In this document: positions 1-39,826 of the stretch, piece after piece
How the letters are laid out: every line of letters begins with the position of its first letter
Numbering within the stretch: position 1 is the stretch's first letter
DNA from: Deltaproteobacteria bacterium
Lineage (GTDB): Bacteria > SAR324 > NAC60-12
Direction: 5' to 3'
Length of the DNA: 40,268 nucleotides
Assembly: GCA_038150265.1 (NCBI GenBank)
Contig: JAYOTF010000021.1
Span: forward strand, 7,537-47,804
The notes under the pieces: model-generated
Databases searched by the model: none
Told to the model about the DNA's origin: nothing
The model's input: the letters and a program-made list of their open reading frames with translations, nothing else
Made by a program: the position numbers and the translations under genes

Positions 1-636
1 ATCCTGATACGAGGCGGAGGAAGGGCTGAAGGTGAGGGAGTCGTTCTCGGCATCAGAAGCGGATGCCCGCGCAGACAGGCTACAGCTGCCACTCGGATTT
101 GAGGCTTCGTTAACGGTACACGTCACATTTGAAACCGTGGGGGCGGTATTGACCGGAGCCTTCAGGTCAATGATGTAATCCGTGGTAGCGCCGTCCACAA
201 CAATGGTCTTGGAACCACTTCCGTTGCCCGACCCGGAGATCGACGGAAAGCCTCCACTTGTCGTGGGATACCCGCTGACCGGCTTATCGTCCAGGTAGAC
301 GGTCCACTGTTGCCCCGGTCTCAACCCCGAAGCGGTCACCGTAATGGTTTCCGATGAGCTATCCTCTCCAGCGGGAATCCCGGCATACTGCGCCGGGCCA
401 TCCACACCACCCGAGTTGCTGGTGTAAGGAATCTGGAAGGAGTCCGATTTCCCGGTGCTGGAACGAATAGAAAAGGATGCGGTCCCGGTGCCCTGTGCCC
501 CCACCACGCTACTCAGGAAGACCGTTCCCCAAAGCAAAAGGATGAGACGGAGCAACACGGCACGCCCCCAGCGCATTCGCTTCAAGGAACTCATCTGCAC
601 CAACAAGGAGCACCGGCTCTCAGGACACACACACAT
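1..636 (-). CDS. Secreted Ig-like/cadherin-like repeat protein, N-terminal part (runs off the window edge)
   Basis: Not in the ORF track. Manual translation is open from ATG 636 (GGAG 8 nt upstream) or ATG 594 to base 1: MSSLKRMRWGRAVLLRLILLLWGTVFLSSVVGAQ (signal peptide), then an S/T/G-rich beta-strand region and NTAPTVSNVTCTVNE...ASDAENDSLTF, typical of bacterial cadherin/Ig-like repeats. Confidence 0.75.
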   Translation of the reverse strand, partial: MCVCPESRCSLLVQMSSLKRMRWGRAVLLRLILLLWGTVFLSSVVGAQGTGTASFSIRSSTGKSDSFQIPYTSNSGGVDGPAQYAGIPAGEDSSSETITVTASGLRPGQQWTVYLDDKPVSGYPTTSGGFPSISGSGNGSGSKTIVVDGATTDYIIDLKAPVNTAPTVSNVTCTVNEASNPSGSCSLSARASASDAENDSLTFSPSSASYQD

Positions 637-641
637 TTCGC

Positions 642-833
642 TCACTCCGCGCCCACCCCATTCATCTGGCGGAGCAGGGCCAGGTCCTTGAGCAGCACCC
701 CCACCTCCTGATCCGGGTTCGTCTTGTGGTGGTTCTCCAGAAACACCAGGAGCTGGTTCAGCTGCTTGGGACAGTACTCCCCCTTCAGCTCGAAGATGAG
801 CGTGTCTTCTGCTTCGCGGCATTGAATGAACAT
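642..833 (-). CDS. Small hypothetical protein, weakly STAS/anti-sigma-antagonist-like N-terminus
   Basis: ORF 642..866; likely start at MFIQCREAEDTLIFELKGE (ATG 833). Its stop lies 5 nt upstream of the ATG at 636, suggesting co-transcription. Confidence 0.45.
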   Translation of the reverse strand: MFIQCREAEDTLIFELKGEYCPKQLNQLLVFLENHHKTNPDQEVGVLLKDLALLRQMNGVGAE

Positions 834-904
834 GAGGCCTGATCCAAAACGAAGGGAGTGGGGCATTGAACAACTGCGAAGGTTATTGCAGGAATGTCCC
901 TGAC

Positions 905-934
905 CAACAAACCCGTAGATGGGAGGTCTACGGG
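905..934 (-). terminator. Putative intrinsic terminator/attenuator hairpin
   Basis: Perfect 8-bp stem CCCGTAGA-N7-TCTACGGG (912-934), followed on the minus strand by TTTGTT. Confidence 0.4.
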
Positions 935-939
935 AATTA

Positions 940-1070
940 ACCGATCAAGCCTTTGATATCAAAACAGATTAATCCGAAACCTCCGAAATGGGAGTTTTTG
1001 GGAGATTTCTTTAATCTATTGATATTGTTTAATTTTTAAAAAACAGGATTTTTGCAGAAATTTTCCCATG
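940..1070. promoter_or_regulatory. AT-rich promoter/regulatory region upstream of the small ORF and adhesin-like gene
   Basis: Sharp AT-rich segment with palindromes TTTGATATCAAA (952-963) and GATTAATC (967-974), direct repeats TCCGAAA (973, 982) and TGGGAG (989, 999). Confidence 0.5.
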
Positions 1071-1225: not shown

Positions 1226-3871
1226 TCAGGAATTCAGGGAGGTGTAGCGCTGCTGCAGTTCAGGAATGCGAGCATCCTCGGCGCAGGCGCGGAAGACGTG
1301 CTGGACCAGCCGCCGAACACGGCGGTACTGGGGACGACGGGGGAATTTTTCAAAGGAAAAGTACTGCTCCAGGCCTCGGCAGCGCCAGGTGTTGCGATCC
1401 AGGTGCACCCCCCATCCGGTCTCCTGAGCCAGATCAATCAGTGACCTCTCCGTCACCTCCTCATAGCAAAGCAGCAGGTCATTCATGAACTGAACAAACT
1501 CGCGCTTGAACGCTTCCTCCCGGTCCTGCGGGGTCTCTTCCTGAAGCTGGAGGTGGTGCCGAACCCGAGCCAGCAGCTCCACTTCCCGGATCGGCTTGCT
1601 CAGGTAGTCGGTTCCTCCCACCTGATACATCGCCTCCAGGTCTTCACGCCGGTTCAGCGCCGACATGAAGAGGATGGGCAGGTGTTCCTCAGGGAAGGAC
1701 TTCCGGATCAGCTCACAGGTTTCCAGGCCATCGAGCCCGGGCATCATCACATCCAGCAGCAGCAGCGACGGCTTCAGCAGTCCCGGGTCTTCCAGGTACT
1801 TCAGGGCCTCCTCTCCGGTGCCAATGAGGGTCACCTGGTAGTGAGCGCGTTGCAGCATCTCCATGAGGACGTACTGAGACGTCGGGTCATCTTCAATGAC
1901 CAGCACCAGCGGGTTTTGCGAATTCGCCGGCAAGGGGGCAGCCAGCACCTGAGGCACCACCGCTTCAACGGTGGGCAGTTCAAAGCTGATGGCCTTCTCC
2001 TGAGGCCCCCGTGTTTCCAGTTGCAGGGTACTGCCGTAATTGGCCAGGAGGTCCTGCACCACACTCAGGCCCACGCCCAGCCCGGGAACACCAGGAGCGG
2101 CTCCTCGCTCAAAGGGGCGAACCAGCCGTTCCCATTCATCTGGCGCAATGGGGGTTCCGGTGTCCACCACCCGGATCTGGATCCGAGTCTCTGAGAGCAC
2201 TTCCACCTCCAGCCGAACGCTGCCCTGGGGGGTGTACTTGATCGCATTGTCCAGCAGGTTCAGCAGGACCTGATGCAGCTCGGCGGCATCCGCCTGAAGC
2301 GGTGGCAGGTCGTCCGGAATTTTGGACATCAGCATCAAGGAACGCTCGGCGGCCTGATGCTCCAGCAGCAGGAGCACCTCCTCCAGCAGGCTCCTCAGCT
2401 CCACCGAGTCTCTTCGGGCCCGCAGCAACTCGCCCCCTTCCACTCGGGTCAGGAGGTCGTCGACCATCCGCGCCATCCGCACGCTGTTGCTCTGAATCAG
2501 GTCAAGCGCCACCCTTCCCTTGCGAGAGAGCGCCTCCTCCCCCTTGAGGAGGTTCTCCACCAAGCCCACAATGCCATGCAGTGGGGTCTTGAGCTCATGA
2601 GATGTATTGGTCAGCAGGCGGTCCTTGAAGGCATCCACTTCCTGGAGCTGCCGGATGGCCTGCTGCTGGGCCTCCAGTTTCTCCTGACGCAGCACCCGCA
2701 TCTGATCCGCAAGGCCCCACGAGAGCAGCAACGACAGCAGCATCATGCTTCCCATCGAGTACCACTCGGAGCGCAAGGCCTCCGGAAACCAGTCGAGGAT
2801 GGCCAGTCCGGTGAGCAAGAACCCCAAAAATGGCGAGAGCGCGGCCCCAAACAGGTAACGCGCCGGACGGTACCCCTGGCCCATGACCCACGCGGCAGAG
2901 AGCAGCAGCAGCAAGGAGCTGATGATGGCAAAGGCGATCCGGAACTGCAGGAACCCCCGCATGCCGCCGTCACTCAACCCAAAGGGCAGCAACCCCATCA
3001 GCAAAGCGACTCCTGCCCCGGTGGAGAGCACCACAAAGCAGAGGCGCGACCGGCGCTTGAGTTCCAGAAACTGAATGAAGAACAGGTAGGCACACACCGA
3101 GCTCAACGCGCCCGCAATGGCAGATCCACGCAGCACCCACCACGGCAGGTCCTGAGTCAGGTAAAGCAGGAAGTTGCTCCGTGAAAAGTAGAGCAGGTGG
3201 GTCAGCAGGAAGAGGCTGTACAGCAGGTAACTGACGTTCTGGAGCCCCCGGAAGAGGAACAGGTTGTACATCGCGAGCGCCAACCCGAATCCCCAAAACA
3301 GGCTCACCCCCCACTGCTGAAAGGTCTGCTGCAGCAACGCCTCCGCAGGAGTCATGGCAGTGAGGGGGAAGCTCAGGGCATTCACCGACCGGACCCGCCA
3401 ATGCAGCACCCGCGTTTCTCCGGGCTCCAGGCTCAGCTGGAACACCGGCGTGGGCAACGCCACGGTTCGAAGAGCCAGCGGCACAAAGCTTCCGGACCGT
3501 TGCAACGAGCGAGCAGCCTGGAGGTCGGGGAAGAAATCGATCTCGTTGGTAAAGAGGCTTTCACTGACCAGCCAGCGTTCCAACCGAGTGGACCCCGGGT
3601 TGTGGACGGTCAGCCGAAACCAAAACGTAGAGCCCGTGAATCCGAGGTTCGAGCCGCCCTCCGGAAGCGCACGGAACGCCGCCTGCGGTTCCGGACGCGC
3701 CAGGTCCTCCCGCGTCAGGGTGCCTTCAGGGTCCTCCAGGACCTCCAGGAAGGGAGTTAACTCCTGCTGAGGAAAACTGGAGGTCAGGTTGACGCGAACC
3801 TGCGCGCCAAGGCTGCCGCTCAGCAAGAAGAGGATTGCTCCCACGACCCCCCACAACCGAACTGTGCTCAA
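1226..3871 (-). CDS. Hybrid sensor histidine kinase: 7TMR-DISMED2 + 7TM-DISM + HisKA + HATPase + REC + C-terminal ChiS-family-like DNA-binding domain
   Basis: Signal peptide; LEDPEG...NLGFTGSTFWFRL (DISMED2); YNLFLF...YLLYSLF plus 7 TM helices; SHELKTPL; NLLDNAIKYT; GLGVGLS; REC IEDD...LLDVMMP...KP; about 100-aa tail with M..LL.YE..T.RS..LA.E..W.V.LD..T.R.R.L..Y.....P.RP..R.V. Confidence 0.9.
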   Translation of the reverse strand: MSTVRLWGVVGAILFLLSGSLGAQVRVNLTSSFPQQELTPFLEVLEDPEGTLTREDLARPEPQAAFRALPEGGSNLGFTGSTFWFRLTVHNPGSTRLERWLVSESLFTNEIDFFPDLQAARSLQRSGSFVPLALRTVALPTPVFQLSLEPGETRVLHWRVRSVNALSFPLTAMTPAEALLQQTFQQWGVSLFWGFGLALAMYNLFLFRGLQNVSYLLYSLFLLTHLLYFSRSNFLLYLTQDLPWWVLRGSAIAGALSSVCAYLFFIQFLELKRRSRLCFVVLSTGAGVALLMGLLPFGLSDGGMRGFLQFRIAFAIISSLLLLLSAAWVMGQGYRPARYLFGAALSPFLGFLLTGLAILDWFPEALRSEWYSMGSMMLLSLLLSWGLADQMRVLRQEKLEAQQQAIRQLQEVDAFKDRLLTNTSHELKTPLHGIVGLVENLLKGEEALSRKGRVALDLIQSNSVRMARMVDDLLTRVEGGELLRARRDSVELRSLLEEVLLLLEHQAAERSLMLMSKIPDDLPPLQADAAELHQVLLNLLDNAIKYTPQGSVRLEVEVLSETRIQIRVVDTGTPIAPDEWERLVRPFERGAAPGVPGLGVGLSVVQDLLANYGSTLQLETRGPQEKAISFELPTVEAVVPQVLAAPLPANSQNPLVLVIEDDPTSQYVLMEMLQRAHYQVTLIGTGEEALKYLEDPGLLKPSLLLLDVMMPGLDGLETCELIRKSFPEEHLPILFMSALNRREDLEAMYQVGGTDYLSKPIREVELLARVRHHLQLQEETPQDREEAFKREFVQFMNDLLLCYEEVTERSLIDLAQETGWGVHLDRNTWRCRGLEQYFSFEKFPRRPQYRRVRRLVQHVFRACAEDARIPELQQRYTSLNS

Positions 3872-4164
3872 TCCTGTCCCTTACCATGAATGAAATCCTT
3901 TCCTGAGAGGCAAAGCCCAGATTGACTCTGTCCCCATGAACCGAGGTCATTATTGAACAATCACCGCTGCTTCTCAAGGTTTCCTCTTGAAAGAAAAACG
4001 ACCGAGCCCTCAACTGATCCACAAAACCGTTCCTTTCCGGAAGGCTTTTTTGCCTTTTCGTTCCCCTTCGTGCCCTTTTTCATTTTCCAGAATCCCCTTT
4101 CTCGTCTGAAGCCTTCACGGCTACAAAGGTCCGGCACCGGGAGCCGTACTTGCTCAGGCTCGTG

Positions 4165-4301: not shown

Positions 4302-5051
4302 ATGAAACCACCTGCAATTGAAACGCACCACCTCAGCCAGTCCTTTGGCGCATTCGAGGCGGTGACAGACCTGACCTTCTCCGTCGCCGAGGGCGAAATT
4401 TTCGGATTTCTGGGACACAACGGAGCCGGCAAAACCACCACGCTGCAGATGCTGACCACGCTGGCCCTCCCGAGCTCTGGAACCGCAAAAGTGGCTGGAC
4501 ACGACATCCTGACGCACCCGTTAGACGTACGCCGCGCCATTGGTTACGTCCCGGAAAATGTCCGACTCTATGACACCTTGACCACGCGAGAAAACCTGAC
4601 CTTTTTCGCCCAACTTTCTGGGCTCGAAGACACTCAGAAGCCCATCCGCACCGTGCTGGAGTTTCTCTCAATTGAAGACCTCATTGACCGTCGGGTGGGC
4701 ACCTTTTCCAAAGGCATGCGGCAACGAGTGGGACTCGCTCAAGCCATCCTGCACCGCCCGCAGGTGCTGTTTCTTGACGAGCCTGCTTCCGGACTCGACC
4801 CCATGGGCATGAAGATGCTCCGGAACCTGATCCTCCGGCTCAACCGGGAGTGGGGCCTGACGATCTTCATGAACACGCACCTCATCTCTGAAATTGCCAA
4901 AACCTGCACCTCCATTGGTGTGCTGAACCACGGGAGGCTGGTGTTTCACGACACCCTGGAACAGGTCACGGCACGCTATGGAGACGACACTGCGCTGGAG
5001 GAGCTGTACCTGTCGGTGGTGCCCACCACGGCCACCGGGGAGGCGGCATGA
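4302..5051 (+). CDS. ABC transporter ATP-binding protein (ABC-2/DrrA-CcmA-like exporter)
   Basis: Walker A GHNGAGKTT, signature FSKGMRQR, Walker B LFLDEP, H-loop NTH. Confidence 0.95.
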   Translation: MKPPAIETHHLSQSFGAFEAVTDLTFSVAEGEIFGFLGHNGAGKTTTLQMLTTLALPSSGTAKVAGHDILTHPLDVRRAIGYVPENVRLYDTLTTRENLTFFAQLSGLEDTQKPIRTVLEFLSIEDLIDRRVGTFSKGMRQRVGLAQAILHRPQVLFLDEPASGLDPMGMKMLRNLILRLNREWGLTIFMNTHLISEIAKTCTSIGVLNHGRLVFHDTLEQVTARYGDDTALEELYLSVVPTTATGEAA

Positions 5052-6007
5052 AGCACCCCTCGCCTCCTCATCCGGTCCGGCCAGCATGGACGATTGCCCA
5101 GCAGTCGCTGCGGTGCCTGTTGCAGGACCGAACGGTCGCGCTGCTGGCGCTGCTGTTTGTCGTCCTCGTGATGCTTTCCGCCTACCTGGGCTGGTCAGCC
5201 ACCCACACGATCAACCAGATTTACGACGATGCCGTCGGTTACTTCCGGGCACAGGGCCAGCCGATTCCGCCGAATCCGGTCCAGGAGCTTTCGTCGCTCG
5301 GCCTGATGCGCAACCTGTCGATTTACGTCAGCCTCATTGGCGCTCTTGCGGCCATCGTCATCGGTTACGAGTTGGTGGCCACCGACCGGAAGGCCGCCGT
5401 GCTGCCCCTGCTGGGGTCTCGCCCCCTGCCTCCCAGGGCTTACGCGTTGGGAAAGATCACGGCGCTGCTGAGCGCAACTGGACTGCTGAGCGTTGTGGCC
5501 GCCGTGATTGTGCTCGCGACCTTTCTGGCCCTGCCGCAGGTACACCTGAGTGCAACGGAGTGGGGCAAGCTGTTCCTCTTCCTGGGGCTGGCCTATGGCT
5601 ACCTCGCCCTCTTTGGGTTGCTGGCCATGGGCATCGCCGCTCAGGCAGAGTCCGAATCCGTGGGGCTGCTCCTTCCCGTGACACTCTGGCTGACGCTGAC
5701 CTTCATCTTTCCGTCCCTGACCGCCAACATTCACCCCACTGCGGCCATCAATCCCATCTCGGCGTTGGCCCTGCCTCCGGACTCCGCCTTCTTTCACGGA
5801 ACCCGCGCCCTCATCGGTTCCCTCTCGTTGGCTGACGATTTCAAGTACCTCGCCGCCGGCTTGCTCGACTACCGGCCTGCTGGAGTGCCAGCGCCAGGCG
5901 GGGTGCCTCCGCTACCGGGCCTGATGCTCGCCCTGGGGCTGGTCACCGGTTATGCCGTCTCGGCCCTGAACGCCATGAATCGCTCACCAGGAGGTCGCCA
6001 TGCTTAA
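5048..6007 (+). CDS. ABC-2 type transporter permease
   Basis: Multiple TM helices; DRKAAVLPLLGSRP...ALGK motif; ATGA overlap with the ATPase. Confidence 0.85.
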   Translation: MKHPSPPHPVRPAWTIAQQSLRCLLQDRTVALLALLFVVLVMLSAYLGWSATHTINQIYDDAVGYFRAQGQPIPPNPVQELSSLGLMRNLSIYVSLIGALAAIVIGYELVATDRKAAVLPLLGSRPLPPRAYALGKITALLSATGLLSVVAAVIVLATFLALPQVHLSATEWGKLFLFLGLAYGYLALFGLLAMGIAAQAESESVGLLLPVTLWLTLTFIFPSLTANIHPTAAINPISALALPPDSAFFHGTRALIGSLSLADDFKYLAAGLLDYRPAGVPAPGGVPPLPGLMLALGLVTGYAVSALNAMNRSPGGRHA

Positions 6008-6977
6008 GCATCCCCTTCTCGCCATCGCGCGCAAGGACCTTTCCGACGCACGTCGCGACCGGTTTCTGCTGATTCTCACCGGGTGCCTCGCCCTCGCAGC
6101 GCTGGTGTCGCTCATCACAGGGGCCATGGCGCTTTCCGCTGAGGTCGCCAGCTACCACGAGGCCAAGGCCCTGCTGCTTTCTCTTGGGAAGCCGATCGAC
6201 TCCATTGTGGCTCCAGAGTTTCACCCGCTCAAACTGCTGCGGGGTGCCATTGAGCAGATTGAAATCCTGGGCGCCGTGCTCGGCATTCTGGCTGGATTCC
6301 GGACCGCGGCCAGTGAGCGAGGACGGCAAACGCTTGCCCTGATCATGACACGTCCCGTGAAGCATTGGCACTTTCTGGCCGGGAAGTATTTGGCAGGAGC
6401 GCTCTTGCTTTCCTTCAGCTTCCTGACGGTCTTTGCCCTCGCCACGCTGGCGCTGCAGGGGCTCTCTGGAGTTGGCCTCGTTGCCGATGACCTGCTCCGG
6501 ATCTTCATCGTCTGGGGGGCGGCCTCGCTGTACGTGCTGACGTTTTACAGCCTCACCTTTGTCCTGACCCTTGGCCTGAAGCACCCGGCCCATGCGCTAC
6601 TGATCGCCTTCACCGCCTGGCTGCTGGTGGTCCTGGTTGCACCCCAGATCGGGGACACGCTCGACCCAGACAACCAGGTGGCCGGAGGAGTCTTCAAGCA
6701 GCTGAGTGTTCCCAAAGCGGAACAGGACCGCATCCTGGCCAGCTATGCCGCCTTTGAAACCATCCGGAACGGCATTGAAGCCTCGTCCATCACCAAGCAC
6801 TTTGAGCGTTTTTCCTTCGCCGTGTTGGGAATCAAGGATTCCTACACCGGCAAGCCCCTCGGTCCGATCCTGACCGAGAAGCAGGGTGATTTTCTCTGGA
6901 TCCTTTTCACCTCCCTCGGGTTGACGGTGCTGCTGCTCGTCCTTCCCATTCATCCCAATCGACTCACCAAGGAATGA
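6000..6977 (+). CDS. ABC-2 type transporter permease (NosY-like)
   Basis: IARKDL N-terminus, SERGRQTLALIMTRPV...FLAGK motif, about 6 TM helices. Confidence 0.9.
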   Translation: MLKHPLLAIARKDLSDARRDRFLLILTGCLALAALVSLITGAMALSAEVASYHEAKALLLSLGKPIDSIVAPEFHPLKLLRGAIEQIEILGAVLGILAGFRTAASERGRQTLALIMTRPVKHWHFLAGKYLAGALLLSFSFLTVFALATLALQGLSGVGLVADDLLRIFIVWGAASLYVLTFYSLTFVLTLGLKHPAHALLIAFTAWLLVVLVAPQIGDTLDPDNQVAGGVFKQLSVPKAEQDRILASYAAFETIRNGIEASSITKHFERFSFAVLGIKDSYTGKPLGPILTEKQGDFLWILFTSLGLTVLLLVLPIHPNRLTKE

Positions 6978-6980
6978 CTC

Positions 6981-7610
6981 ATGTTGACCTTTCCCCAAAA
7001 GACCACCCTTGCTTCTGCCTGCGCGGCCCTCATTCTGGGAACAACGGCCCCGGCTTACGCCACGTCTGACACCGATGGCGATGGCATCCCGGACTCGGCA
7101 GAAGCTCTGATGCACACGGATCCGCAACAGCCTGACACTGACGGCGACGGCGTCAATGACCTCCAGGACGACAACGCCGCCTTTGCGCCCACTCCTCTGC
7201 CGCACACAGGCCAGCCTGCGCCCTTCCGGATTGGTGAGGCGCTCGTTGAAAACAACTACGATCCGGTCGCGCGTCAGGATGTTTCGGATCACCTGGAACT
7301 CCAGGTCCTCAACTCCAGCAACACCGCGCTGACGGACTTCACGGTTTACTATACCATCAAGGATGGCGACAATGGAGCGACGGAAGCGTACCGCAAGCAG
7401 CTCTCCGGCTTTACCGTTCCCGCTCACGGCGAGGCTCGGCTGCACTTCGATGACGGCACCCAGCCCCAGCACTTTCGCGCCAATCCGAACTCGATCTACG
7501 TGACCAGTTCAGCAGCAAAGACCTTCACGGTCACGCTGCAGGCCTCCGGGTTTCAGCCTGTCACGGTGAGCCTTGACAAAGACGCCGGGGGCGCAGAAGT
7601 CGCAGACTGA
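6981..7610 (+). CDS. Secreted protein with two Asp-rich DxDGDG (TSP3-like) putative Ca-binding repeats and a beta-rich C-terminal domain
   Basis: Signal peptide ending ...[16 protein letters not shown]...[23 protein letters not shown]. Confidence 0.8.
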
Positions 7611-7697
7611 CTCCTGCTCGCCCTGTTTTTCCACAGCGTGGAGCCTCCGGATTCCGGACAACTCCACCTGTCGCCCTTTCCTCCGAAGGAGTTCCTG

Positions 7698-8369
7698 ATG
7701 AAGATTTTGGTCGCGGAAGATGACCGGGAAACCGGAACCTTCATCCGCAAGGGCCTCACTGAAGAAGGGCACCAGGTCGATCATGTGGTCACCGGACGAG
7801 AGGCGCTCGTCCAGGCATCCGGAGGCACCTACGACCTGCTGATCATCGACCGGATGATGCCGGAGTTGGACGGCCTGACCCTGGTGAAGTCACTCCGGCT
7901 GGCCCGCATTGAGGCGCCGATCATCTTCCTGACCGCCCTCGGAAGCGTCAATGACCGGGTGGACGGCCTGAAAGCCGGTGCCGATGATTACCTCGTCAAG
8001 CCCTTTGCGCTGGTGGAACTCTCCGCCCGCATTGCCACCATCGCCCGGCGGCCCAAGCTGCAGCAAGAGGTTACGGAACTCACTGTTGGTCCGCTGCAAC
8101 TTGACCTCCTGACCCGCACCGCGACCCGCAATGGTGAACGGATTGAGCTGCACCCCAAGGAGTTTTTGATGCTGAAGCTGTTCATGGAACACCCCGGACG
8201 CATTCACACCAAGACCATGCTGCTGGATGCGGTTTGGGGCATTCACTTTGACCCGCAAACCAGTGTGGTGGAAACCCACATCAGTCGCCTCCGGAACAAG
8301 ATCGACAAGCCCTTCGACACGCAACTTCTGAAGACCCTCTATGGCGTCGGCTACGTTCTGGAGCCATGA
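7698..8369 (+). CDS. OmpR-family response regulator (CusR/CopR-like)
   Basis: MKILVAEDD, IIDRMMP, GADDYLVKPF, winged helix VVETHISRLRNKIDKPF...GVGY; AAGGAG RBS before ATG 7698. Confidence 0.95.
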   Translation: MKILVAEDDRETGTFIRKGLTEEGHQVDHVVTGREALVQASGGTYDLLIIDRMMPELDGLTLVKSLRLARIEAPIIFLTALGSVNDRVDGLKAGADDYLVKPFALVELSARIATIARRPKLQQEVTELTVGPLQLDLLTRTATRNGERIELHPKEFLMLKLFMEHPGRIHTKTMLLDAVWGIHFDPQTSVVETHISRLRNKIDKPFDTQLLKTLYGVGYVLEP

Positions 8370-9817
8370 CGTCGTTTCCTGCCCTTCGCGTCTGGCAACA
8401 GGTGCGCCGCTCATCCGCGCTCCGTTTGGCATTGTGGCTTTCCGGCCTGTTCAGTGTGACTGGATTCGTCGCCGGACTGATTTCCTGGTCGATTCTTGGC
8501 CATGAACTGGAGCAGCGTCTGATCGAAGACGCCCAGGCCCTCGCAAACGGGCTTCAGGTCAACCTCGAACGGTCCGGACCCGAGGCGCTTTCCCGCTCCG
8601 TTCAGGCCCTCAGCCAGATCAATGAATCACACGAGACGCTGTACTTCTTCTCTGCTCCCGGGCAGGAATCCGTTGGAGATATCAGTTGGGTGACACCTTT
8701 TTCCGGGATCCGGACGCTCCTGCCAGACAAGGATTTTGGCATCGTTGGAGAACCTGCAGGAACTCCGGAGCCCGAGAGGGACGAGGAAATGGGAGGAGGG
8801 CAGGAGGAAAGTTACCTCGCGTTTGGCATCTGGACCCCACAGGGGCAGATCGTGGTGGCACGAGACCGACAGCGCGTCCTCAACAGCCAGCAGGTGCTGA
8901 TGGAATCAATTGGCTGGGGACTCGGGGGCGCCTTTGCCATCACCATGCTGCTCGCCTTCGCGATTGCACGACGCGATGCCCGCCGGGTTGCACAGCTCAA
9001 TGACGTCTTGCACACCGTGGCCTCCGGAGACTTTCAGGCCCGGGTTCCGGGAATCGACCGGATTGAAGACGACCTTGGGCAGGTGGGAACTGGGCTGAAC
9101 CAGATGCTCGAACGGCTGGAGACCAACGTGGAACGACTGGCTCAGGTCTCCGCTGACATTGCCCACGACCTGCGTTCCCCGCTGACTCAGCTCCGGTTGC
9201 GACTGGAGCCTCATGCCCTGCGGAGTGACCTTCCGCACGACACCCGGATGGCCATTGCCGCCTCGCTGGAAAGCCTCACGCAGATTGCCCACAGCTTTGA
9301 CGCCATCCTCCAGCTGTCGCAACTGGAAACAGGAAACCTGGTGCTGGAGACGGTTCCGGTCAACCTGAACCCGTTGGTGCACGACCTTCTGGAAATGCTG
9401 GCTCCGGTTGCTGAAGAAATGGGGCACGTGCTACACGGCACGGTGCCGACGGCTCCGGTTTGGGTGGAGGGAAATGCGGGGATGCTGTCGCAGGCCCTCG
9501 TGAATCTGATCAACAACGCGCTGCTGCACTCTCCGGAGCCGACCCCGGTTCAGATGAACCTGACTCGGGAGGCGTCCCAAGCGGTGCTGTCGGTTTCCGA
9601 TCATGGCCCCGGCATTCCTCTGGAAGAGCAGGAGAAGGTGCTCCAGCGCTTCTATCGCCTCGACCGAAGCCGCTACCGTCCGGGGGCGGGCCTGGGATTG
9701 AGCCTGGTGAACGCAATCGTGCAGTTGCACTCCGGACGCCTGGAGCTTGCTGACAATGCCCCGGGATTGCGCGTCACGCTGCACCTGCCCGTGTCAGCTC
9801 AGCCATTGCCTGAATGA
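8366..9817 (+). CDS. Two-TM HAMP sensor histidine kinase
   Basis: Two TM helices, HAMP, IAHDLRSPL, NLINNAL, DHGPGI, FYRLDRSR, GAGLGLS. Confidence 0.95.
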   Translation: MTSFPALRVWQQVRRSSALRLALWLSGLFSVTGFVAGLISWSILGHELEQRLIEDAQALANGLQVNLERSGPEALSRSVQALSQINESHETLYFFSAPGQESVGDISWVTPFSGIRTLLPDKDFGIVGEPAGTPEPERDEEMGGGQEESYLAFGIWTPQGQIVVARDRQRVLNSQQVLMESIGWGLGGAFAITMLLAFAIARRDARRVAQLNDVLHTVASGDFQARVPGIDRIEDDLGQVGTGLNQMLERLETNVERLAQVSADIAHDLRSPLTQLRLRLEPHALRSDLPHDTRMAIAASLESLTQIAHSFDAILQLSQLETGNLVLETVPVNLNPLVHDLLEMLAPVAEEMGHVLHGTVPTAPVWVEGNAGMLSQALVNLINNALLHSPEPTPVQMNLTREASQAVLSVSDHGPGIPLEEQEKVLQRFYRLDRSRYRPGAGLGLSLVNAIVQLHSGRLELADNAPGLRVTLHLPVSAQPLPE

Positions 9818-10005: not shown

Positions 10006-10082
10006 TGGTAGCAGGGGAGAGATTTGAACTCTCGACCTCGGGGTTATGAATCCCGCGCTCTCACCAACTGAGCTACCCTGCC
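10006..10082 (-). tRNA. tRNA with CAT anticodon, most likely elongator tRNA-Met
   Basis: Reverse complement GGCAGGGTAGCTCAGTTGGTGAGAGCGCGGGATTCATAACCCCGAGGTCGAGAGTTCAAATCTCTCCCCTGCTACCA folds as a cloverleaf with encoded CCA. G1-U72 pair argues against initiator; no C4:G69/C5:G68 argues against Ile2. Confidence 0.93.
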
Positions 10083-25817: not shown

Positions 25818-26594
25818 TCAGAGCACGCCCGGAAAAGCGCCGCCATCGACCAGGAGATTTTGTCCGGTAATGAAGCCGGCTTGCTCGTGCGCCAGCAGGA
25901 TCACCGCATGCGCCACTTCTGCTGGAGTGCCAAAGCGCTGGGCAGGGATTTTTCGGAGGGTTTCCGCAATGAGGGTTTCGGCGGGAACACCGGCACGCGC
26001 GGCACGATGCTCGAAGTTGGAACGCAGGCGCTCGGTGTCGGTGGGACCCGGCAAGACGTTGTTGAGGGTGATGCCCTCGGCCGCAACCTCTCGGGCGAGT
26101 CCGGACACGGCAGAGGTCAGGGCAGAGCGGGCCGCATTGGAAAGCGCCAGAAACGGCAAGGGCGCCTTCACGGCACTGGAGGTGATGTTGACGATGCGCC
26201 CATACCGCTGAGGCGTCATCCGGGCCACGGCTTCTCGGATGAGGAGGAGGGTGCTGATGAGGGACTGATCCAGCGCCTGCTGCCAGTCCTCACGCTCAAA
26301 GTCCCGGAAGCCTCCCGGCCGAGGCCCTCCGGAGTTGGTGACCAGCACCTGCGGTTCCGGGCAGGCGTCAAAGAGCCGCTGCTGGCCTTCTGGAGTGGTG
26401 ACGTCGCTGACGACCGGATGCACCACGCCGCTGCCGTTAGCCAAAGCCTCGGCCGCGACTGCCTCCAGGTCTTCCAGGGTCCGGGCCGCAGCAAACACCG
26501 TGGCGCCCTGCTGCGCAAACGCCAGGGCACAGGCCCGCCCAATGCCCCGTCCGGCCCCGCAGACCAGGACCTTCTGTCCCGTAAAGGCGGCCAT
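25818..26594 (-). CDS. SDR oxidoreductase (atypical SNxxR active site)
   Basis: CGAGRGIG, NSGGP, LSNAAR, NNVLPG, ITGQNLLVDGG. Confidence 0.92.
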   Translation of the reverse strand: MAAFTGQKVLVCGAGRGIGRACALAFAQQGATVFAAARTLEDLEAVAAEALANGSGVVHPVVSDVTTPEGQQRLFDACPEPQVLVTNSGGPRPGGFRDFEREDWQQALDQSLISTLLLIREAVARMTPQRYGRIVNITSSAVKAPLPFLALSNAARSALTSAVSGLAREVAAEGITLNNVLPGPTDTERLRSNFEHRAARAGVPAETLIAETLRKIPAQRFGTPAEVAHAVILLAHEQAGFITGQNLLVDGGAFPGVL

Positions 26595-27508
26595 CAGTGA
26601 CTCGTCCGGGGCCGACGGGTTGTGCCGTCAAACCCCTGCGTCACCGCCCACTCGGCAAAGTTCTCTGGCGTCCGCTCCCACTCCCGGGGCGTCCACGCCG
26701 CAGTGCAGACGTCTTCATCGGCATAGTATTCAGCCGTTGCTCCTGCCGGACAGTGGAAGTACCAGAAGTATGCTGAGGAAATCGGATGCCGCCCGGGCCC
26801 CAGCTGCGTGGTCCACCCCTTGCGGTCGATGTTCATGCCTCCGCCAAACACCTCATGGATGTCCCGGACCGTGTAGGAAACGTGGTTCAGCCCACGCTTG
26901 CGATCCGGAGTCTGCAGCACAAACAGGTCATGGTGGCCGCCTTCCGGACGGCACCGGAGGAAGTAGCCCGCATTCGGGTAGCAGTCTGAGACCACAAAGC
27001 CGAGGTGCTCCTGATAAAACGAAACACACGCCTGCACTTCTGGAGCAAAGAAGACGACGTGCCCAATCTTGTACGGCTGGGCCGCCTCATACACCCGGGC
27101 GCGCTCATCCACCCGCAGGGTCTGGTCCACGGTGTTGCACACGCTTCCGGTGAGTGCCACCGGGCGCCGCCGGGTCTTCCGGAACGCAAGCGTCAGGCCG
27201 TTCGGGTCCACGGCTTCCACGCCATCGGGTCCGGGTTGGGCGCCCGGGAGCTTCTGCTGCAGGCGGGCCAGCTCCGACTCCTCCGAGGTTCCCCAGACGA
27301 CCTTCCGGACGGTAGAGCCCGGCTCAATCGCCTCCGGAAGCGTCGGGTCCGTGGCCAGCCGCAGCTCCACTTCACACCCGTCGAGGGTCGTCAAGCAGGC
27401 GCCTGAGGCCTCTTGTTGCTGAAGCGCCAGGCCCCAGTCGGTAAAGAAGCGGACGCAAGCGTCCAGGTCTTCCACGCCGTAAACGATTTTATCAATTCCG
27501 GTAATCAT
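26594..27508 (-). CDS. VOC-family protein, type I extradiol ring-cleavage dioxygenase-like
   Basis: Two-domain VOC; IGHVVF, HHDLF, LNHVSY, GRH, YFWYF, AEYYAD supply the His/His/Glu metal triad. Confidence 0.85.
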   Translation of the reverse strand: MITGIDKIVYGVEDLDACVRFFTDWGLALQQQEASGACLTTLDGCEVELRLATDPTLPEAIEPGSTVRKVVWGTSEESELARLQQKLPGAQPGPDGVEAVDPNGLTLAFRKTRRRPVALTGSVCNTVDQTLRVDERARVYEAAQPYKIGHVVFFAPEVQACVSFYQEHLGFVVSDCYPNAGYFLRCRPEGGHHDLFVLQTPDRKRGLNHVSYTVRDIHEVFGGGMNIDRKGWTTQLGPGRHPISSAYFWYFHCPAGATAEYYADEDVCTAAWTPREWERTPENFAEWAVTQGFDGTTRRPRTSH

Positions 27509-27526
27509 GAGTGACTTCTGCAGCAG

Positions 27527-28999
27527 TTATCCCAAAGCCCAGGGAATCGGAGTGTCGTTGAGTCCCCAGAGCAGGCTCTTCTGGTTCATGTAGGCCCGGA
27601 GGCTTGCGCGCCCCTTCTCGCGCCCGAGGCCAGACTGCTTGACACCGCCGAAGGGAACGGCGATGGAAAACTGTTTGTAGGTGTTGATCCAGACGGTCCC
27701 GCACTGAAGCTGCCGGGACACGCGCAGGAGCTTTTGGTAATCCGGACTCCAGAGGCCAGCCGCGAGTCCATAGACCGAGTCATTGGCCTGAGCAATCAGG
27801 TCGTCCTCATCGTCAAAAGGCAGGGCCATCAGCACGGGGCCAAAGACCTCTTCCTGGGCCAGGCGCGTCTGATTTCCCAGCCCCACCAGCAGGGTGGGCT
27901 CATAAAAAGTCCCCGCGGCCAACTCGGGAGCCTCCGGAGCCTTTCCTCCGCAAAGGAGGGTGCCGCCTTCCTGCAGTCCCAACTGCACGTAGGCGTCAAC
28001 GCGCTGGCGGTGTTCCGGAGTGATGAGCGGTCCCATCTGCGTGGTTTCCGCAAAGGGGTCGCCCATGCGGAGGTGCTGAATGGCCGCCTGCAGGCGCGCC
28101 ACAAAGGGCTCAAAGAGCGGGCGTTCCACAAAGAGCCGGGAGCCGGCAATGCACGATTCTCCGGAGCTGGAGTAGATGCCAAACAGCACCCCGGCAATGG
28201 CCTGATCGAGGTCGGCATCAGAGAAGACGATGGTCGGCGACTTGCCCCCAAGCTCAAGCGACAGGGGCATGAACTTCGGAGCCGCAAGCTGTGCAATGCG
28301 GGCGCCGGTGGTGGTGCCTCCGGTGAAGGCGACCTTCTTGACCAACGGGTGGGTGACCAGCGTTTCGCCGACTGGGCTTCCGCCTCCGGGCAGCACCGAG
28401 ATCACCCCAGGCGGCACCCCGGCTTCCAGGCAAAGGCGTCCCAGCTCCAGGGCCAGCAGCGGCGTGTTTTCCGAAGGCTTCAGGATCACCGCGTTTCCAG
28501 CCGCAAGCGCAGGCGCCAGCTTCTGAGCCTCACTGGCCACCGGAGAGTTCCACGGAGTGATCGCCGCCACCACGCCCAGCGGTTCATGGAGGCTCATCGC
28601 CAGATGCGGCCCACGCGCCGGGAGGATTTCATCTTCCAGCGTCTCCAGCGCAGAGCCAAAGAACTGAAAGGTCCCTGCGGCACTGGCCACCAGCGCCCGG
28701 GTTTCCATGATGGGTTTGCCGTTGTCCAGCGTCTGGAGCTGCGCCAATTCCTCGTGCCGGGCCCGGATGAGCTGGGCCACCCGAAAGAGCACCCCGGCGC
28801 GTTCGTGAGGCATCAGCCCAGCCCAGGAAGCCTGCCGCCACGCCTGGTCGGCCTCGACAATCGCCTCTTCGACTTCACGGACCGACGGTTCTTGCCACTC
28901 CGCGACCAGCGCGCCGTTGCCTGGATGAAACGACTGGCGCACCGGTCCGGAGCCCGGACGCCACGTTTTGCCAATGAGCAGATCCAGCGGTGCTTTCAT
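27527..28999 (-). CDS. NAD(P)-dependent aldehyde dehydrogenase
   Basis: ITPWN, KPSE, FTGGT, LELGGKS, SGESCIAG (catalytic Cys), EEVFGP, PFGGVKQSG. Confidence 0.96.
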   Translation of the reverse strand: MKAPLDLLIGKTWRPGSGPVRQSFHPGNGALVAEWQEPSVREVEEAIVEADQAWRQASWAGLMPHERAGVLFRVAQLIRARHEELAQLQTLDNGKPIMETRALVASAAGTFQFFGSALETLEDEILPARGPHLAMSLHEPLGVVAAITPWNSPVASEAQKLAPALAAGNAVILKPSENTPLLALELGRLCLEAGVPPGVISVLPGGGSPVGETLVTHPLVKKVAFTGGTTTGARIAQLAAPKFMPLSLELGGKSPTIVFSDADLDQAIAGVLFGIYSSSGESCIAGSRLFVERPLFEPFVARLQAAIQHLRMGDPFAETTQMGPLITPEHRQRVDAYVQLGLQEGGTLLCGGKAPEAPELAAGTFYEPTLLVGLGNQTRLAQEEVFGPVLMALPFDDEDDLIAQANDSVYGLAAGLWSPDYQKLLRVSRQLQCGTVWINTYKQFSIAVPFGGVKQSGLGREKGRASLRAYMNQKSLLWGLNDTPIPWALG

Positions 29000-29790
29000 C
29001 ACAGCACCAGGGTTCCGGAGCGGTTGACCAGGAAGCGGACCGCACACATGGCCGTGAGGGCCGAGGATTTGGGGTTGCCCGGAATGGGAAGGCCGGTGAT
29101 GCGAAATTCGAGCTCACCGAACGCGCCACGGGCAGTGACCTCATGCGTGTTTCCGGTGGCATGCGGATCGGCCACCAGTTCCACCTGCGTGGCATCCAAC
29201 CCCACTCCGGAGAGCGCGACGGTTGCCGCGACATTGGCATTTTTGGGATACCGCAGTGCCGCATCACGGGCCGAGCCAGTGAAGTGCGCGGTCGCGGCTT
29301 CCAGCGTGTCGAGGTTCAGAACCTCCTCCGCCGGGGTGCCCTTCCAGCCCCGAGACGGTTTCCGCGAGCGGTAGGTCACCTGCTCCAGCCCGCCCACCCG
29401 GGCGGAGGCCAGCGCGTCCATGGCCCCGATCGCTCCGGAGAGCGCGTGCACCTGTGCGCCTCCTGCCCGAGCCGCCTCCTGCAAACGATTCAGCGTGGAC
29501 GCATCAGCCAGCGAACCGATGGAGACCATCCCAAAATCGACTCCGGCCTCCAGAAAGGTGGGGCCAAACTCCCGGACCGCCTCATGGCTGGCCAGCTCCA
29601 GCACCACTTCCGGAGTAAAGGAGAAGTCTTCTGGCTGTGCCCCCGACTCCACGCCTTCCGGAACCGGAACCGCGTGCTGCGCCGGCTGCAGGATTCCGGA
29701 CACCCGGAGCGCGGTCTGCGTGTGCAGCGTCTCCACCACGTAGTGGGCCAGGGCGCCGTAGCCGATCAGCAAAATGCGAGGTGCGCTCAT
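28999..29790 (-). CDS. nadX: L-aspartate dehydrogenase family protein
   Basis: IGYGAL, ELASH, SIGSLAD, SGAIGAMD, SRKP, FTGSARDAALRYPKNANVAAT, NPKSSALT. Confidence 0.9.
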   Translation of the reverse strand: MSAPRILLIGYGALAHYVVETLHTQTALRVSGILQPAQHAVPVPEGVESGAQPEDFSFTPEVVLELASHEAVREFGPTFLEAGVDFGMVSIGSLADASTLNRLQEAARAGGAQVHALSGAIGAMDALASARVGGLEQVTYRSRKPSRGWKGTPAEEVLNLDTLEAATAHFTGSARDAALRYPKNANVAATVALSGVGLDATQVELVADPHATGNTHEVTARGAFGELEFRITGLPIPGNPKSSALTAMCAVRFLVNRSGTLVL

Positions 29791-31460
29791 GCAGAGGCCT
29801 TCCGGACCGGAGGCCCTGCAAACGGACGCGCAAACGGCCCAATTGTCGGCATGTTGAATTCCAGCAGCACCGGCCCCGGCAGAGACGTGCTCCACTGGAA
29901 CGCGGAGGAGGTCTGCTGCAGGTCGTCAATCCGCTGGTACGGCAGCTTCAGCGACGCACACACCTGCTCCAGCTCCGGGAGCAGCAGGTCCGTGTAGCAG
30001 TGCCGACCGCCATAAGCGGCATCCTGAATGTTCCTGATGACCTCGTAGCCCCGGCTGTTCATGACCAGCAGCACGAGGTTGGCCTGCTCCTCCACGGCGG
30101 TCGCCAGTTCAGCGAGCCCCAACTGCAGGCCTCCGTCTCCCACCAGCACCCAGGTCTTGCGGTCTGGACTCGCCAGGGCGGCACCAATGCCCATGGCCAG
30201 CCCTTGCCCAATGCCCCCGCCGGTGGCATGCACGCCCTGCCGGGGGGTGGTCAGGCGCGGGAGCCGGTTTCCCCACATGGAGTTGGAAATGGTGATGTCT
30301 CGGACCCACGGGCTGGCGGGGTCCCTCGCTTCTGTGACCTGTTGGACCAGAGACGCATACACGCCCAGGTCTTCCAGAAGGCGGGCCTCGGCCTGCTGCT
30401 TCGCGGCCTGGAGGTCATTGGCAAAACCGGGGTCCACCGACATCCGGCCGACAAGGCGCTCCGCCAGGGCCGTCAGCACCTCGGTCGCGTCTCCCTGCAC
30501 AAAAAGCTCATTCGGGTAGCAGCGGCCATCGGCGTCCGGATCCGCGTCCACTCGGTACAGCGGCTGCGGGAGTTTCAAGCGGTACTTCAGGGTTTCGTTC
30601 CCCCGGAGGCGGGAGCCGACCACCAGCACGGCATCACAGGTTTGGTAAAGGGCTTCCACAGCCGGACTGGCCGTGAAGGTGCCTAGGTTTTGCGGGTCGT
30701 TTTCATCGACAATGCCCCGCCCCTGGGTCGTGTTCACCACTCCAAACCCGAGGCCCTTCAGCTGCTCCAACGCGGCTCCGGCCTCCCGGGCGCCGCCCCC
30801 GACCCAGATGAGGGGACGCCGAGCCTGCGCCAGGGCTTCCACCAGCGCTTCCAGGCGAGCAGGGTCAGTGGGAACGGGAGTTGGCGCCAGCCGGCTCAGG
30901 TGCTCCGGAACCGGAACCTGGGCGCTCTGGACATCAATCGGAATCTCAATGCTCACGGGTCCGGAAGGCGCTGAGTCGAGCTGCTGAACGGCTTCCTGCA
31001 GCACCGGGAGCACCTGTGCCGGATCGGTCACGCGGTAGGCGGCTTTGGACACCGACCGCAGCAGGCCCAGCTGATCCTTGGCTTCATGGATGTAGCCCAT
31101 GTTGCGGTCGAGGTAGTCCACTTCAATCTGACCCGTGAGGTGCAGGACACGCGCACCTGCGGTTTGGGCTTCCACCAGGGCGCCCGCGGCATTGCCACAG
31201 GCGGTTCCGGTTGAAGTCACCACCACGCCCAGGCCTCCGGAAACGCGAGCCGACGCATCGGCCATGTTGGCCGCACCGGCTTCGCCACGAGCCGTCACAA
31301 ACCGGAGCTGTCCGCGGCGCTTGACCGCATCGAGAATCGGCATGTTGTGGATGGAGATCACGCCATAAAGCGTGGACACTCCGCACGCCTCCAGGAACGC
31401 AACAATCAGGTCTCCAACCGTAAAGGAGTCAGAGGGCAAGGAGACGGATGGATCAGGCAT
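29787..31460 (-). CDS. Thiamine diphosphate-dependent enzyme (acetolactate synthase/decarboxylase-like)
   Basis: GVISIHN, RGEAGA (catalytic Glu), GGIGQG, GDGG...N ThDP motif. Confidence 0.93.
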   Translation of the reverse strand: MPDPSVSLPSDSFTVGDLIVAFLEACGVSTLYGVISIHNMPILDAVKRRGQLRFVTARGEAGAANMADASARVSGGLGVVVTSTGTACGNAAGALVEAQTAGARVLHLTGQIEVDYLDRNMGYIHEAKDQLGLLRSVSKAAYRVTDPAQVLPVLQEAVQQLDSAPSGPVSIEIPIDVQSAQVPVPEHLSRLAPTPVPTDPARLEALVEALAQARRPLIWVGGGAREAGAALEQLKGLGFGVVNTTQGRGIVDENDPQNLGTFTASPAVEALYQTCDAVLVVGSRLRGNETLKYRLKLPQPLYRVDADPDADGRCYPNELFVQGDATEVLTALAERLVGRMSVDPGFANDLQAAKQQAEARLLEDLGVYASLVQQVTEARDPASPWVRDITISNSMWGNRLPRLTTPRQGVHATGGGIGQGLAMGIGAALASPDRKTWVLVGDGGLQLGLAELATAVEEQANLVLLVMNSRGYEVIRNIQDAAYGGRHCYTDLLLPELEQVCASLKLPYQRIDDLQQTSSAFQWSTSLPGPVLLEFNMPTIGPFARPFAGPPVRKASA

Positions 31461-31495
31461 GAGGGGCTTTCAGGCAGTTGGGAAAACAGAAGGCA

Positions 31496-32362
31496 TCACT
31501 CGGAATCGTCTGAGCGTTTCTTGGTACCTCCGGACTGGGGACGCCCACGTTTCTTGACGAAGCGCTGGTTTCCGGCGTCACGAGGCAGCCACCGCTCAAT
31601 CTCCTGAACGGCCTCCAGCACCCGGTCCTTCACTGGACCATTGAGGCGGTCCTGCTCAATGTAGGCATCGACATCGGTGACATTGATCGCGGCCACCACC
31701 TGCCCGGAGGCATTGCGGATCGGGGCCGCCACGGCATGCACCCCATGCTCAAAGAACGACTCGCTGATGGCGTAGCCCCGCTTGCGGTCTTCGTCCAGCA
31801 GCTTCATGAAGTCCTTCACCGTCTGGGGCGTCGCTGGCGTAAAGGTGGGAAGCGGCTCTTCCGGAAACAGCTTGCGGAGCTCCTCTTCCGTCAGATCAAG
31901 GGCGAGCATGCGTCCCATGACCGTGGCATGGAGGGGGAACTGGGTGCCCACCTGAACGCTGCTCTGAATGGTCGTCGAGGCGGGGAAGCGGCTCACGTAC
32001 ACAATGCGGCTGCCATCCCGGACGGCCATGTGCGAGGACATCGCCGTGTCGTCCCGGAGCTTCCTCAGAATGGGGTGTGACAGGTCAATGACATCCAGGG
32101 TCGCCAGGTACTCGAACCCGCGGTTCAGCAAAGCGGGTCCGAGCTGATAGTGCCGCCCGTCTTCGGTGTGCTGCAGGTAGCGCATCTCTTCAAGGGTGCC
32201 CAGCAGCCGATAGGTGGTGGCCCGGGGCAGCCCGAGCGTTTGCGACACCTCGGAAGCCGTAAACTTCGGGGTGTTCTTGCTGAACAGGTCCAAAATGGAA
32301 AGGCCCTGCACCAAAGCCGGGACCAGGTAACGTTGTTTCTTTCGGGGGGATGGCTCGCTCAT
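31496..32362 (-). CDS. IclR-family transcriptional regulator
   Basis: YLVPALVQGLSIL, HTH LGLPRATTYRLL, VGTQFPLHATVMGR, VAAPIRN. Confidence 0.95.
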   Translation of the reverse strand: MSEPSPRKKQRYLVPALVQGLSILDLFSKNTPKFTASEVSQTLGLPRATTYRLLGTLEEMRYLQHTEDGRHYQLGPALLNRGFEYLATLDVIDLSHPILRKLRDDTAMSSHMAVRDGSRIVYVSRFPASTTIQSSVQVGTQFPLHATVMGRMLALDLTEEELRKLFPEEPLPTFTPATPQTVKDFMKLLDEDRKRGYAISESFFEHGVHAVAAPIRNASGQVVAAINVTDVDAYIEQDRLNGPVKDRVLEAVQEIERWLPRDAGNQRFVKKRGRPQSGGTKKRSDDSE

Positions 32363-34498: not shown

Positions 34499-34536
34499 GT
34501 TGGTGTTTTCTTTCTCATGGTTCCAACAAACCGGGA

Positions 34537-35325: not shown

Positions 35326-35339
35326 GGCAGACAATCAGG

Positions 35340-36335: not shown

Positions 36336-36377
36336 GTGTATCTCCTTGACAAGAGGAAGGTTGGGAGACCGAAGTGG

Positions 36378-39580: not shown

Positions 39581-39607
39581 CGTCCTAATCTCCTGAAAAG
39601 TTTCCGG

Positions 39608-39826
39608 TCACTGGCCCAGGCGACGCATTTCCGACTGATACAGCTCGGGGGTCCAGACCTGCCCTCCGGGCGCCGGCACCTGACTGTCGTTCAGGTAGGC
39701 CACCAGCCCCTCCAGGTCGTGAACGCCCTTGGCAAAGGCACGCTCCAGAGAATCAGCCAGCAGGTTTTCATAATCATCAGGGACACGCTTGCGGGCCTGA
39801 TGTGGTTCAAGGTACGGGGGGGTCAT
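39608..39826 (-). CDS. Small recombinase-like HTH-fold protein associated with the Rieske oxygenase
   Basis: YENLLADSLERAF.KGVHDLEGLVAYLN...P.G..WTPE pattern; GGAGG RBS, ATGA overlap with the upstream gene. Confidence 0.75.
   Translation of the reverse strand: MTPPYLEPHQARKRVPDDYENLLADSLERAFAKGVHDLEGLVAYLNDSQVPAPGGQVWTPELYQSEMRRLGQ

Follow-up and report, generated by a model that had tools for sequence, protein, structure and literature searches.

The sensor gene and its domains

The stretch of DNA analysed here, referred to as the window, comprises 40,268 nt of contig JAYOTF010000021.1 (positions 7,537 to 47,804) from the genome of a SAR324-group bacterium (assembly GCA_038150265.1; G000 below). 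On its minus strand, at 1226..3871, lies the gene of an 881-residue hybrid sensor whose C-terminal tail is, as judged from sequence similarity and a predicted structure, a DNA-binding domain of the ChiS family. The gene has a TTG start and the protein a signal-peptide-like N-terminus with a hydrophobic stretch at residues 4-22. Pfam assigns a 7TMR-DISMED2 periplasmic sensor domain (residues 40-173, 3353..3754; PF07696, E 1.8e-24), a 7TMR-DISM_7TM membrane domain (190-390, 2702..3304; PF07695, E 7.5e-23), a histidine kinase core (1970..2626) consisting of HisKA (416-475, with H425) and HATPase_c (528-634, with N542, D570, G572 and P574), and a Response_reg receiver (656-771, 1559..1906) in which E660-D661-D662, D707, S737 and K759 are intact. 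Eight residues separate the receiver from the ChiS-family helix-sheet-helix domain (about 781-881, 1229..1531), which carries R826, R832, R850, Q836 and Q848. These assignments agree with a preliminary description of the locus, according to which the tail is fused to a 7TMR-DISMED2/7TM-DISM sensor instead of the ChiS periplasmic domain. No solved relative of the DISMED2 domain was found by sequence. A promoter-like site for the sensor gene itself (3949..3977, minus strand) matches 10/12 consensus positions; it is weak, with 0.6 such sites expected by chance in the scanned region.

The sequence of the gene is supported by contigs from sequencing runs of 4 studies, including contig X1 (451-1501) with no differences, and two Logan-derived proteins have an identical tail. 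Among the 17 coding differences listed from strain contigs (58 further entries lie beyond these), 15 are synonymous and 2 non-synonymous, and both tail differences among those listed are synonymous. The gene is under purifying selection. Runs containing at least half of the words of this DNA are estuary, lagoon or aquatic metagenomes and one unlabelled sample, and none of the runs listed as containing the DNA is an RNA run.

A ChiS-family domain at the C-terminus

Pfam assigns no family to the tail (778-881) at E<=0.1. In a comparison with 177,635 PDB sequences, a single match at E<=10 was obtained, chain A of 7KPO (E 3.9e-9, tail residues 8-89), which is the DNA-binding domain of ChiS (PMC8092284). 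Sequence identity between the two is 25%, and a profile built from the 16 tails of this genome matches 7KPO at E 7.1e-32 over 99 positions. The similarity extends over most of the length of the domain, and the tail occupies the same C-terminal location, within the last 100 residues. An AlphaFold model of the tail (16-row alignment, pLDDT 96) contains a two-strand hairpin between helices, so that the predicted fold is of the helix-sheet-helix type. When the model was searched with Foldseek, 7KPO was the sole match of 92 with E<=0.001 (TM-score 0.85, root mean square deviation (rmsd) 1.7 Å, 101 columns), and VIA-align placed it first with Z 15.6 and rmsd 1.6 Å over 101 residues, followed by chains of XRE-type helix-turn-helix proteins with Z<=7.8. 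The preliminary description had recognized a ChiS-family domain behind the receiver and had proposed an AlphaFold and Foldseek comparison with the ChiS structure; the tail sequence is as it was read there, and the comparison gave 7KPO as the clear top match.

The fusion as such had been implied to be novel, which is not supported, as 7TM-DISM hybrids with a ChiS-family domain are named classes in Klancher 2021 (PMC8092284, Data Set S1). The catalogued 7TM-DISM class shows the same order of a 7TM-DISM sensor, a histidine kinase (HK), a receiver (Rec) and a C-terminal ChiS domain in one chain. It differs by a PAS-containing segment between Rec and the DNA-binding domain (DBD) that is absent here, where 8 residues stand against an insert of about 160-230. 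Judged from that publication, the insert of about 200 residues in other forms would be the PAS segment; Pfam detected no PAS domain at E<=1e-5 in the 2 insert-bearing proteins scanned. Among the 7 non-ChiS classes named in the part of Data Set S1 available to us, there is no HK-Rec-DBD form without PAS, and three SAR324 proteins appear in the unassigned sheet without an architecture. No published study on non-Vibrio or SAR324 members was found, nor was the insert-free form or its candidate DNA sites found in print, subscription journals lying largely outside the search. By sequence, the protein is a ChiS-domain homologue that falls outside the PAS-containing class and lacks two residues of the functional signature. 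It does not qualify as a ChiS orthologue: a 7TM-DISM sensor takes the place of the two-helix periplasmic chitin/CBP sensor, and the gene is flanked by the genes of an ABC exporter and of a giant secreted protein rather than by chb-type genes.

Paralogues and distribution

The genome contains 16 ChiS-type tails, that of the 881-residue sensor and 15 more. Nine belong to long membrane forms (8 with a Pfam DISMED2 domain), one protein is cut by a contig end, four are soluble receiver-tail proteins, one has an unannotated N-terminus and one is a stand-alone domain. The tail profile matched 44 of the 88 genomes of the phylum that were searched, with hits in 28/44 genomes of the same family, 0/19 of the sister family and 14/19 of another family; one further genome of the same family also has 16 tails. 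A protein labelled SAR324 is identical to the product of a gene in G012, another genome of this family, which places the window in the SAR324 group. Wherever receiver and tail were both detected in the long forms of G000, the tail follows after 8-31 residues, compared with an insert of about 160-230 residues in most other kinase forms among 149 representatives (which include at least 2 paralogues from this genome and 2 genes of relatives). In a FastTree phylogeny of the kinase-receiver core, 24 insert-free and 27 insert-bearing rows were split by one branch with support 97. This tree of 51 rows, from which 7 strongly divergent rows were left out, is unrooted and does not indicate the older state. 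On this sequence evidence, the insert-free form is a separate lineage that has expanded in SAR324.

Tandem arrays of three and two long-form sensors occur at C65:655-8752 (L019) and C12:74-5433 (L028) of G000; they show a graded loss of kinase and receiver motifs with the ChiS-type tail kept, and similar decayed pairs are found in G001 (L052) and G020 (L059). The four soluble proteins made of a receiver and a ChiS-type tail are encoded at C1:54127-55038, C2:29383-30171, C25:604-1443 and C4:38908-39732, two of them next to hybrid kinases or CheR. Judged from these sequences, the ChiS-type domain also acts as output domain in ordinary response regulators; the named classes in the consulted part of the 2021 data set do not include this architecture. 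The stand-alone domain lies at C8:11623-11979 (L024), and the domain with an unannotated 90-residue N-terminus at C2:72621-73259 (L018), with a CHASE5 kinase on one side and a sugar ABC operon on the other.

A word-based search for orthologues with residues 650-881 returned mostly unrelated receivers, and a metagenome scan for orthologues with an intact tail, based on a two-row alignment, gave 3 distant loci among 212 candidates. The word TCCGGA is very abundant in the genome (2.86 per kb; 9,711 copies compared with 1,639 of the reversed word). A link between its abundance and the number of tails was rejected, because G044, G048, G056 and G069 have thousands of copies but no tail, and TCCGGA-depleted genomes (G085, G086, G087) have 3-7 tails.

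Candidate operators downstream of the sensor

Downstream of the sensor gene and in the same orientation lie a small open reading frame (ORF) of 63 residues (642..833, minus strand), the first after a predicted promoter, and the start of a giant secreted protein (1..594, minus strand), which is the candidate target. The latter has a signal peptide and Big_9 (Ig-like), cadherin-like and NHL repeats, comprises about 2,700 residues or more, and extends beyond both window and contig. Its frame is split in two by a run of 10 N (G000 C21:7527-7536) immediately before position 1 of the window, probably an assembly artefact between repeated domains.

Between the sensor gene and the small ORF, a 20-bp repeat occurs at 919-938 and 988-1007, each copy consisting of two 10-11-bp units. 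The distal candidate operator (987..1007, minus strand) is made of two tandem 10-bp units with a CTCCCA core. The proximal one (917..938, minus strand) is made of two tandem 11-bp units, ends about 10 bp before the predicted -35 hexamer and overlaps a hairpin at 912-934. The two candidate sites are 69 bp apart and share 14/21 bases. An AT-rich block (945..1065; 29% G+C compared with 61% in the genome) lies between and around them and includes a third matrix-scoring site at 1042-1062; an inverted repeat in this block was discarded, 12/300 shuffles being equally good. The predicted sigma-70-like promoter (880..907, minus strand), with a TTG hexamer at 907-902, a 16-bp spacer and a TAnnnT hexamer at 885-880, is the only such pattern on its strand in 800-1225, and the same offset between repeat and promoter is seen at other loci.

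This layout was compared across loci in several ways. DNA downstream of 13 long-form genes yielded a shared motif of 15.2 bits, compared with 13.2-13.4 bits in 3 shuffled sets. A matrix was derived from other genomes (11 sites, 7 loci). With it, the region 867-1225 of the window came first of 789 intergenic regions when sites were scored in pairs (23.0, the runner-up having 19.1) and seventh when they were scored singly; the stretch downstream of the C65 paralogue, which is outside the 789-region list, scores higher. A model-free four-unit score of at least 38 was reached by 8/14 regions downstream of such genes and 6/755 intergenic regions, 2 of the 6 being these same loci. By an automatic rule, a TTG-16..18-TAnnnT pattern starts 9-11 bp past the repeats in 4/14 regions, the chance level being 280/27,698 15-bp windows, and 9 loci anchored by eye align with repeats that end 8-11 bp before the TTG hexamer. 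Among 895 sigma-70-like sites in the genome, only 2 reach the values of the window for the tandem units and the distal copy, and of the four best sites, three directly follow such sensors. The layout looks real for a subgroup that includes this locus, and its sequence looks locus-specific. By our reading, the ChiS probe (text of Fig. S1 in PMC8092284) likewise contains two clusters of tandem units ahead of a TTG.

A search for the window-type site pattern in 5 genomes returned chance matches, the best inside a coding region. One of the 11 intergenic strain differences listed falls in a repeat unit and none in the hexamers, numbers too few to weigh. Across 9 loci, the divergence of the tails is correlated with that of the sites (rho 0.41, p 0.012), a correlation that was not counted, being driven by orthologous pairs and kin; it is also undercut by the G012 tail closest to that of this sensor, which prefers other paralogues in the reverse search. 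Further copies of repeat plus promoter were observed at C7:107586 (L090), C59:13195 and C63:2295 of G000, away or further from a sensor gene. They stand before lipoprotein-like or secreted genes, which, on sequence grounds, are candidates for the regulons of the C65 and C59 paralogues.

Genes around the sensor

At several sensor loci (L053, L055, L060, L062, L072, L073, L074 and L091, the last at G000 C59:12763-13017), the first downstream gene encodes a conserved protein of about 65 residues that has an invariant LDC motif and matches no Pfam family. The 63-residue ORF of the window may be a distant member of this group, although the comparison is suggestive only: 20/2000 shuffles score as high, and hhalign gives E 4.5e-4 with a probability of 33%. 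The ORF has no Pfam family, and single-sequence search found no match to it in 30 relatives. Lipoprotein-like or secreted genes, recognized from N-termini inspected by eye, follow several relatives and paralogues of the sensor; paralogue neighbourhoods as a whole are mixed.

On the other side of the sensor, the block 4302-9817 encodes an ABC exporter (ATPase and two permeases), a secreted protein with TSP3 repeats and a pair of OmpR-type response regulator (7638-8369) and its own kinase (8366-9817). This pair, on the strand opposite to the sensor, is part of the exporter block, which lies between the sensor and a tRNA gene (10009-10082). Beside the orthologue in the sister species G002, the block is replaced by three genes, among them a GntR gene and one for a glutathione transferase, and the genes beyond are syntenic. 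The block is a variable one, and because of its replacement in G002, no regulator is conserved beside the sensor. The earlier statement that no cognate regulator is adjacent needs amending for the window, where the OmpR-type regulator is nearby, although it is missing beside the orthologue in the sister species. Farther away, a minus-strand run at 25821-40128 resembles, by its translations, what we take to be a cluster for the catabolism of aromatic compounds, presumably with a Rieske-type oxygenase, a reductase, an ABC transporter, an IclR-like regulator and an aldehyde dehydrogenase.

A proposed membrane-anchored activator of a surface-protein operon

From the anatomy of protein and locus, we regard the sensor, with modest confidence, as a membrane-anchored activator of the neighbouring operon of the small ORF and the giant surface protein. 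To the observed architecture, the tail homology, the predicted fold and the repeats with their positions, the ChiS precedent and this anatomy would add the steps from ligand to transcription. The DISMED2 periplasmic domain would sense a ligand and pass the signal through the seven-helix region and the kinase scaffold; each pair of 10-11-bp units would be occupied by dimers arranged head to tail; and the proximal site, about 10 bp ahead of the -35 hexamer, would recruit RNA polymerase as ChiS does, so that the predicted promoter of the small ORF and the giant protein would be switched on. In ChiS, two sites are needed, and cytoplasmic fragments bind DNA but do not activate (bioRxiv 10.1101/2020.01.10.902320). 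DISMED2 domains differ in their ligands, with calcium reported for LadS and carbohydrate-linked sensing for NicD (PMC8544897), so the ligand of the 881-residue sensor cannot be read off. Signalling straight from membrane to DNA, as suggested earlier, is the best reading, with indirect support from the repeats taken as candidate operators and from the persistence of the tail in paralogues whose kinase is dead.

The state of the kinase bears on this point. H425, N542 and the G2 box are present, and the G1 box reads DxGxP, with P574 in place of the second Gly. DxGxG is found in 47/49 HATPase domains detected in the genome, the sensor being one of the 2 without it, and the G002 orthologue (69% identical) also lacks the second G1 Gly. 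Moreover, in 4/9 long paralogous forms the phospho-accepting His is lost, yet the tail persists and retains one or both of the key basic residues. For ChiS, kinase activity was reported to be dispensable and phosphorylation of the receiver to lower DNA binding (bioRxiv 10.1101/2020.01.10.902320). Because of the paralogues without the phospho-accepting His and the G1 defect, phosphorylation probably only tunes the output here, as in ChiS, and the balance tips slightly towards a sensor that is active when unphosphorylated. A LadS-type hybrid kinase, whose real output would be phosphotransfer, for example to the four soluble regulators with receiver and ChiS domain, and whose tail would be secondary, could account for the intact H425, N542, D707 and K759. 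LadS begins with the same series of sensor, kinase and receiver and acts through GacS (PMC4866733), and besides the four soluble proteins the genome encodes four HPt-bearing kinases. Such a relay is nonetheless quite improbable, given the decay of kinase motifs with persisting tails in those paralogues and the missing Gly in both orthologues. In addition, some genes of the soluble proteins adjoin their own kinases, and all 4 HPt matches of the genome fall within frames of 736-964 residues, no stand-alone HPt gene having been found.

How the tail would contact DNA was considered by mapping ChiS residues onto it through the pairwise alignment with 7KPO. R826, R832 and R850 are the equivalents of ChiS R1068, R1074 and R1092, so that basic residues are present at these three positions. 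At K1078 and R1090 the tail has Q836 (1364-1366) and Q848 (1328-1330), in columns that hold K or R in 141/149 and 143/149 representatives, respectively. The close agreement with the ChiS pattern that had been noted earlier thus extends to the overall homology and fails at the two best-conserved basic residues. The fold-determining residues are kept, and the Arg-rich segment 843-857 contains six K/R and no acidic residue, a net charge of +6 that none of 164 other rows reaches; the arginines gained are at 845, 846, 851, 853 and 854. The Gln/Gln change is read from these sequences as a re-wired DNA-contact surface that neighbouring arginines would compensate.

Several observations weigh against the role of the sensor as activator of the adjoining operon, some of them concerning the tail and others the DNA. 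The ChiS mutants R1068Q, R1074Q, K1078Q, R1090Q and R1092Q do not bind DNA (PMC8092284), and Q836 and Q848 are the same substitutions that abolish ChiS binding. None of the 149 representatives or the 15 paralogues lacks K/R at both columns. Furthermore, L855 replaces a T/S found in 149/149 representatives, and the tail departs from 9/30 conserved columns, tied for the most. The G002 orthologue breaks off after residue 768 at the edge of its contig, so that its tail and the DNA downstream are missing from the assembly; its tail was not among the 11 tails of that genome. A decayed or weakly binding tail would explain these departures, given the null phenotype in ChiS, the G1 defect and the presence of 15 other tails. 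The sites would then be read by one of the 15 paralogues, and the protein would be a partner (a heterodimer subunit or a damper) or a relic. We think this unlikely, as the fold is preserved in a confident model, Arg is gained in the same segment, both listed strain differences in the tail are synonymous, and the repeats differ in sequence from those beside the paralogues, which is what one would predict were every copy to read a site of its own.

As for the DNA, the top-ranked pair of sites lies at 989 and 1042 and does not include the proximal site, which a promoter-anchored matrix from 6 other loci scores at -5.0, a value equalled or exceeded in 805/5006 cases. When 20 fresh loci were analysed, among which only 3 are complete insert-free 7TM-DISM forms, 0/18 scorable downstream regions reached a four-unit score of 38 (range 25-37) and 1/20 upstream regions did. 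Window size, spacing range and anchors had been chosen after the loci were seen, and kin are not independent. With the post hoc geometry, the 18 fresh regions, the mixed paralogue neighbourhoods and the hairpin with a T-run that overlaps the proximal site, it could be argued that the tail binds DNA elsewhere and that the repeats arose by chance or serve as a terminator hairpin or as sites of an unrelated regulator. The chance of this appears small, since a matrix from other genomes ranked the region first of 789 and no second strong window-type site with a promoter was found in the genome. The terminator reading was rejected, as the hairpin is no more stable than shuffles (z -0.34) and leaves the distal copy unexplained.

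Beyond the proposed activation of the surface-protein operon at this locus, a wider scheme can be entertained only tentatively and is rather doubtful. A SAR324 lineage may possess a set of paralogous membrane transcription factors with seven helices, each with its own version of a common operator-promoter arrangement, in which two clusters of tandem repeats adjoin the -35 hexamer, before its own surface-protein operon and with an optional kinase, in which this copy would have re-wired its DNA-contact surface together with its operator.

Relation to known systems and significance

Like ChiS of Vibrio cholerae, the protein is a membrane hybrid kinase with a C-terminal helix-sheet-helix domain, equivalents of R1068, R1074 and R1092, and likely two sites upstream of a -35 hexamer. 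ChiS has two helices and a CBP-controlled periplasmic domain, in contrast to the seven-helix DISM sensor found here, and regulates a chitobiose operon, the candidate target here being a surface protein. The sensor further differs by the lack of PAS, by Gln at K1078 and R1090, and by the arrangement of its candidate sites, which lie 69 bp from each other and have a period of 10-11 bp. LadS, RetS and NicD of Pseudomonas aeruginosa share the DISMED2-7TM input, and LadS also the kinase and receiver, but their output runs via GacS/GacA or cyclic di-GMP (c-di-GMP) without a DNA-binding tail. The hybrid two-component systems of Bacteroides, with an AraC-type output, likewise join a sensor, a kinase, a receiver and a DNA-binding domain within a single membrane protein and show paralogue expansion (bioRxiv 10.1101/2020.01.10.902320), whereas their sensor and DNA-binding domains are unrelated to those described here.

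In the literature found, ChiS is the only family member with tested DNA sites, and in the accessible text its authors left open how the helix-sheet-helix domain reads its sequence. The present locus and its paralogues provide tails that can be matched with candidate operators, one of these tails being a natural variant with two changes that are lethal to ChiS binding, and such pairs make the recognition code and the role of phosphorylation testable. If true, the co-rewiring of operator and tail would be a natural test of the ChiS-family recognition code. The locus also hints at how an uncultured and widespread marine and estuarine group may control its large surface proteins.

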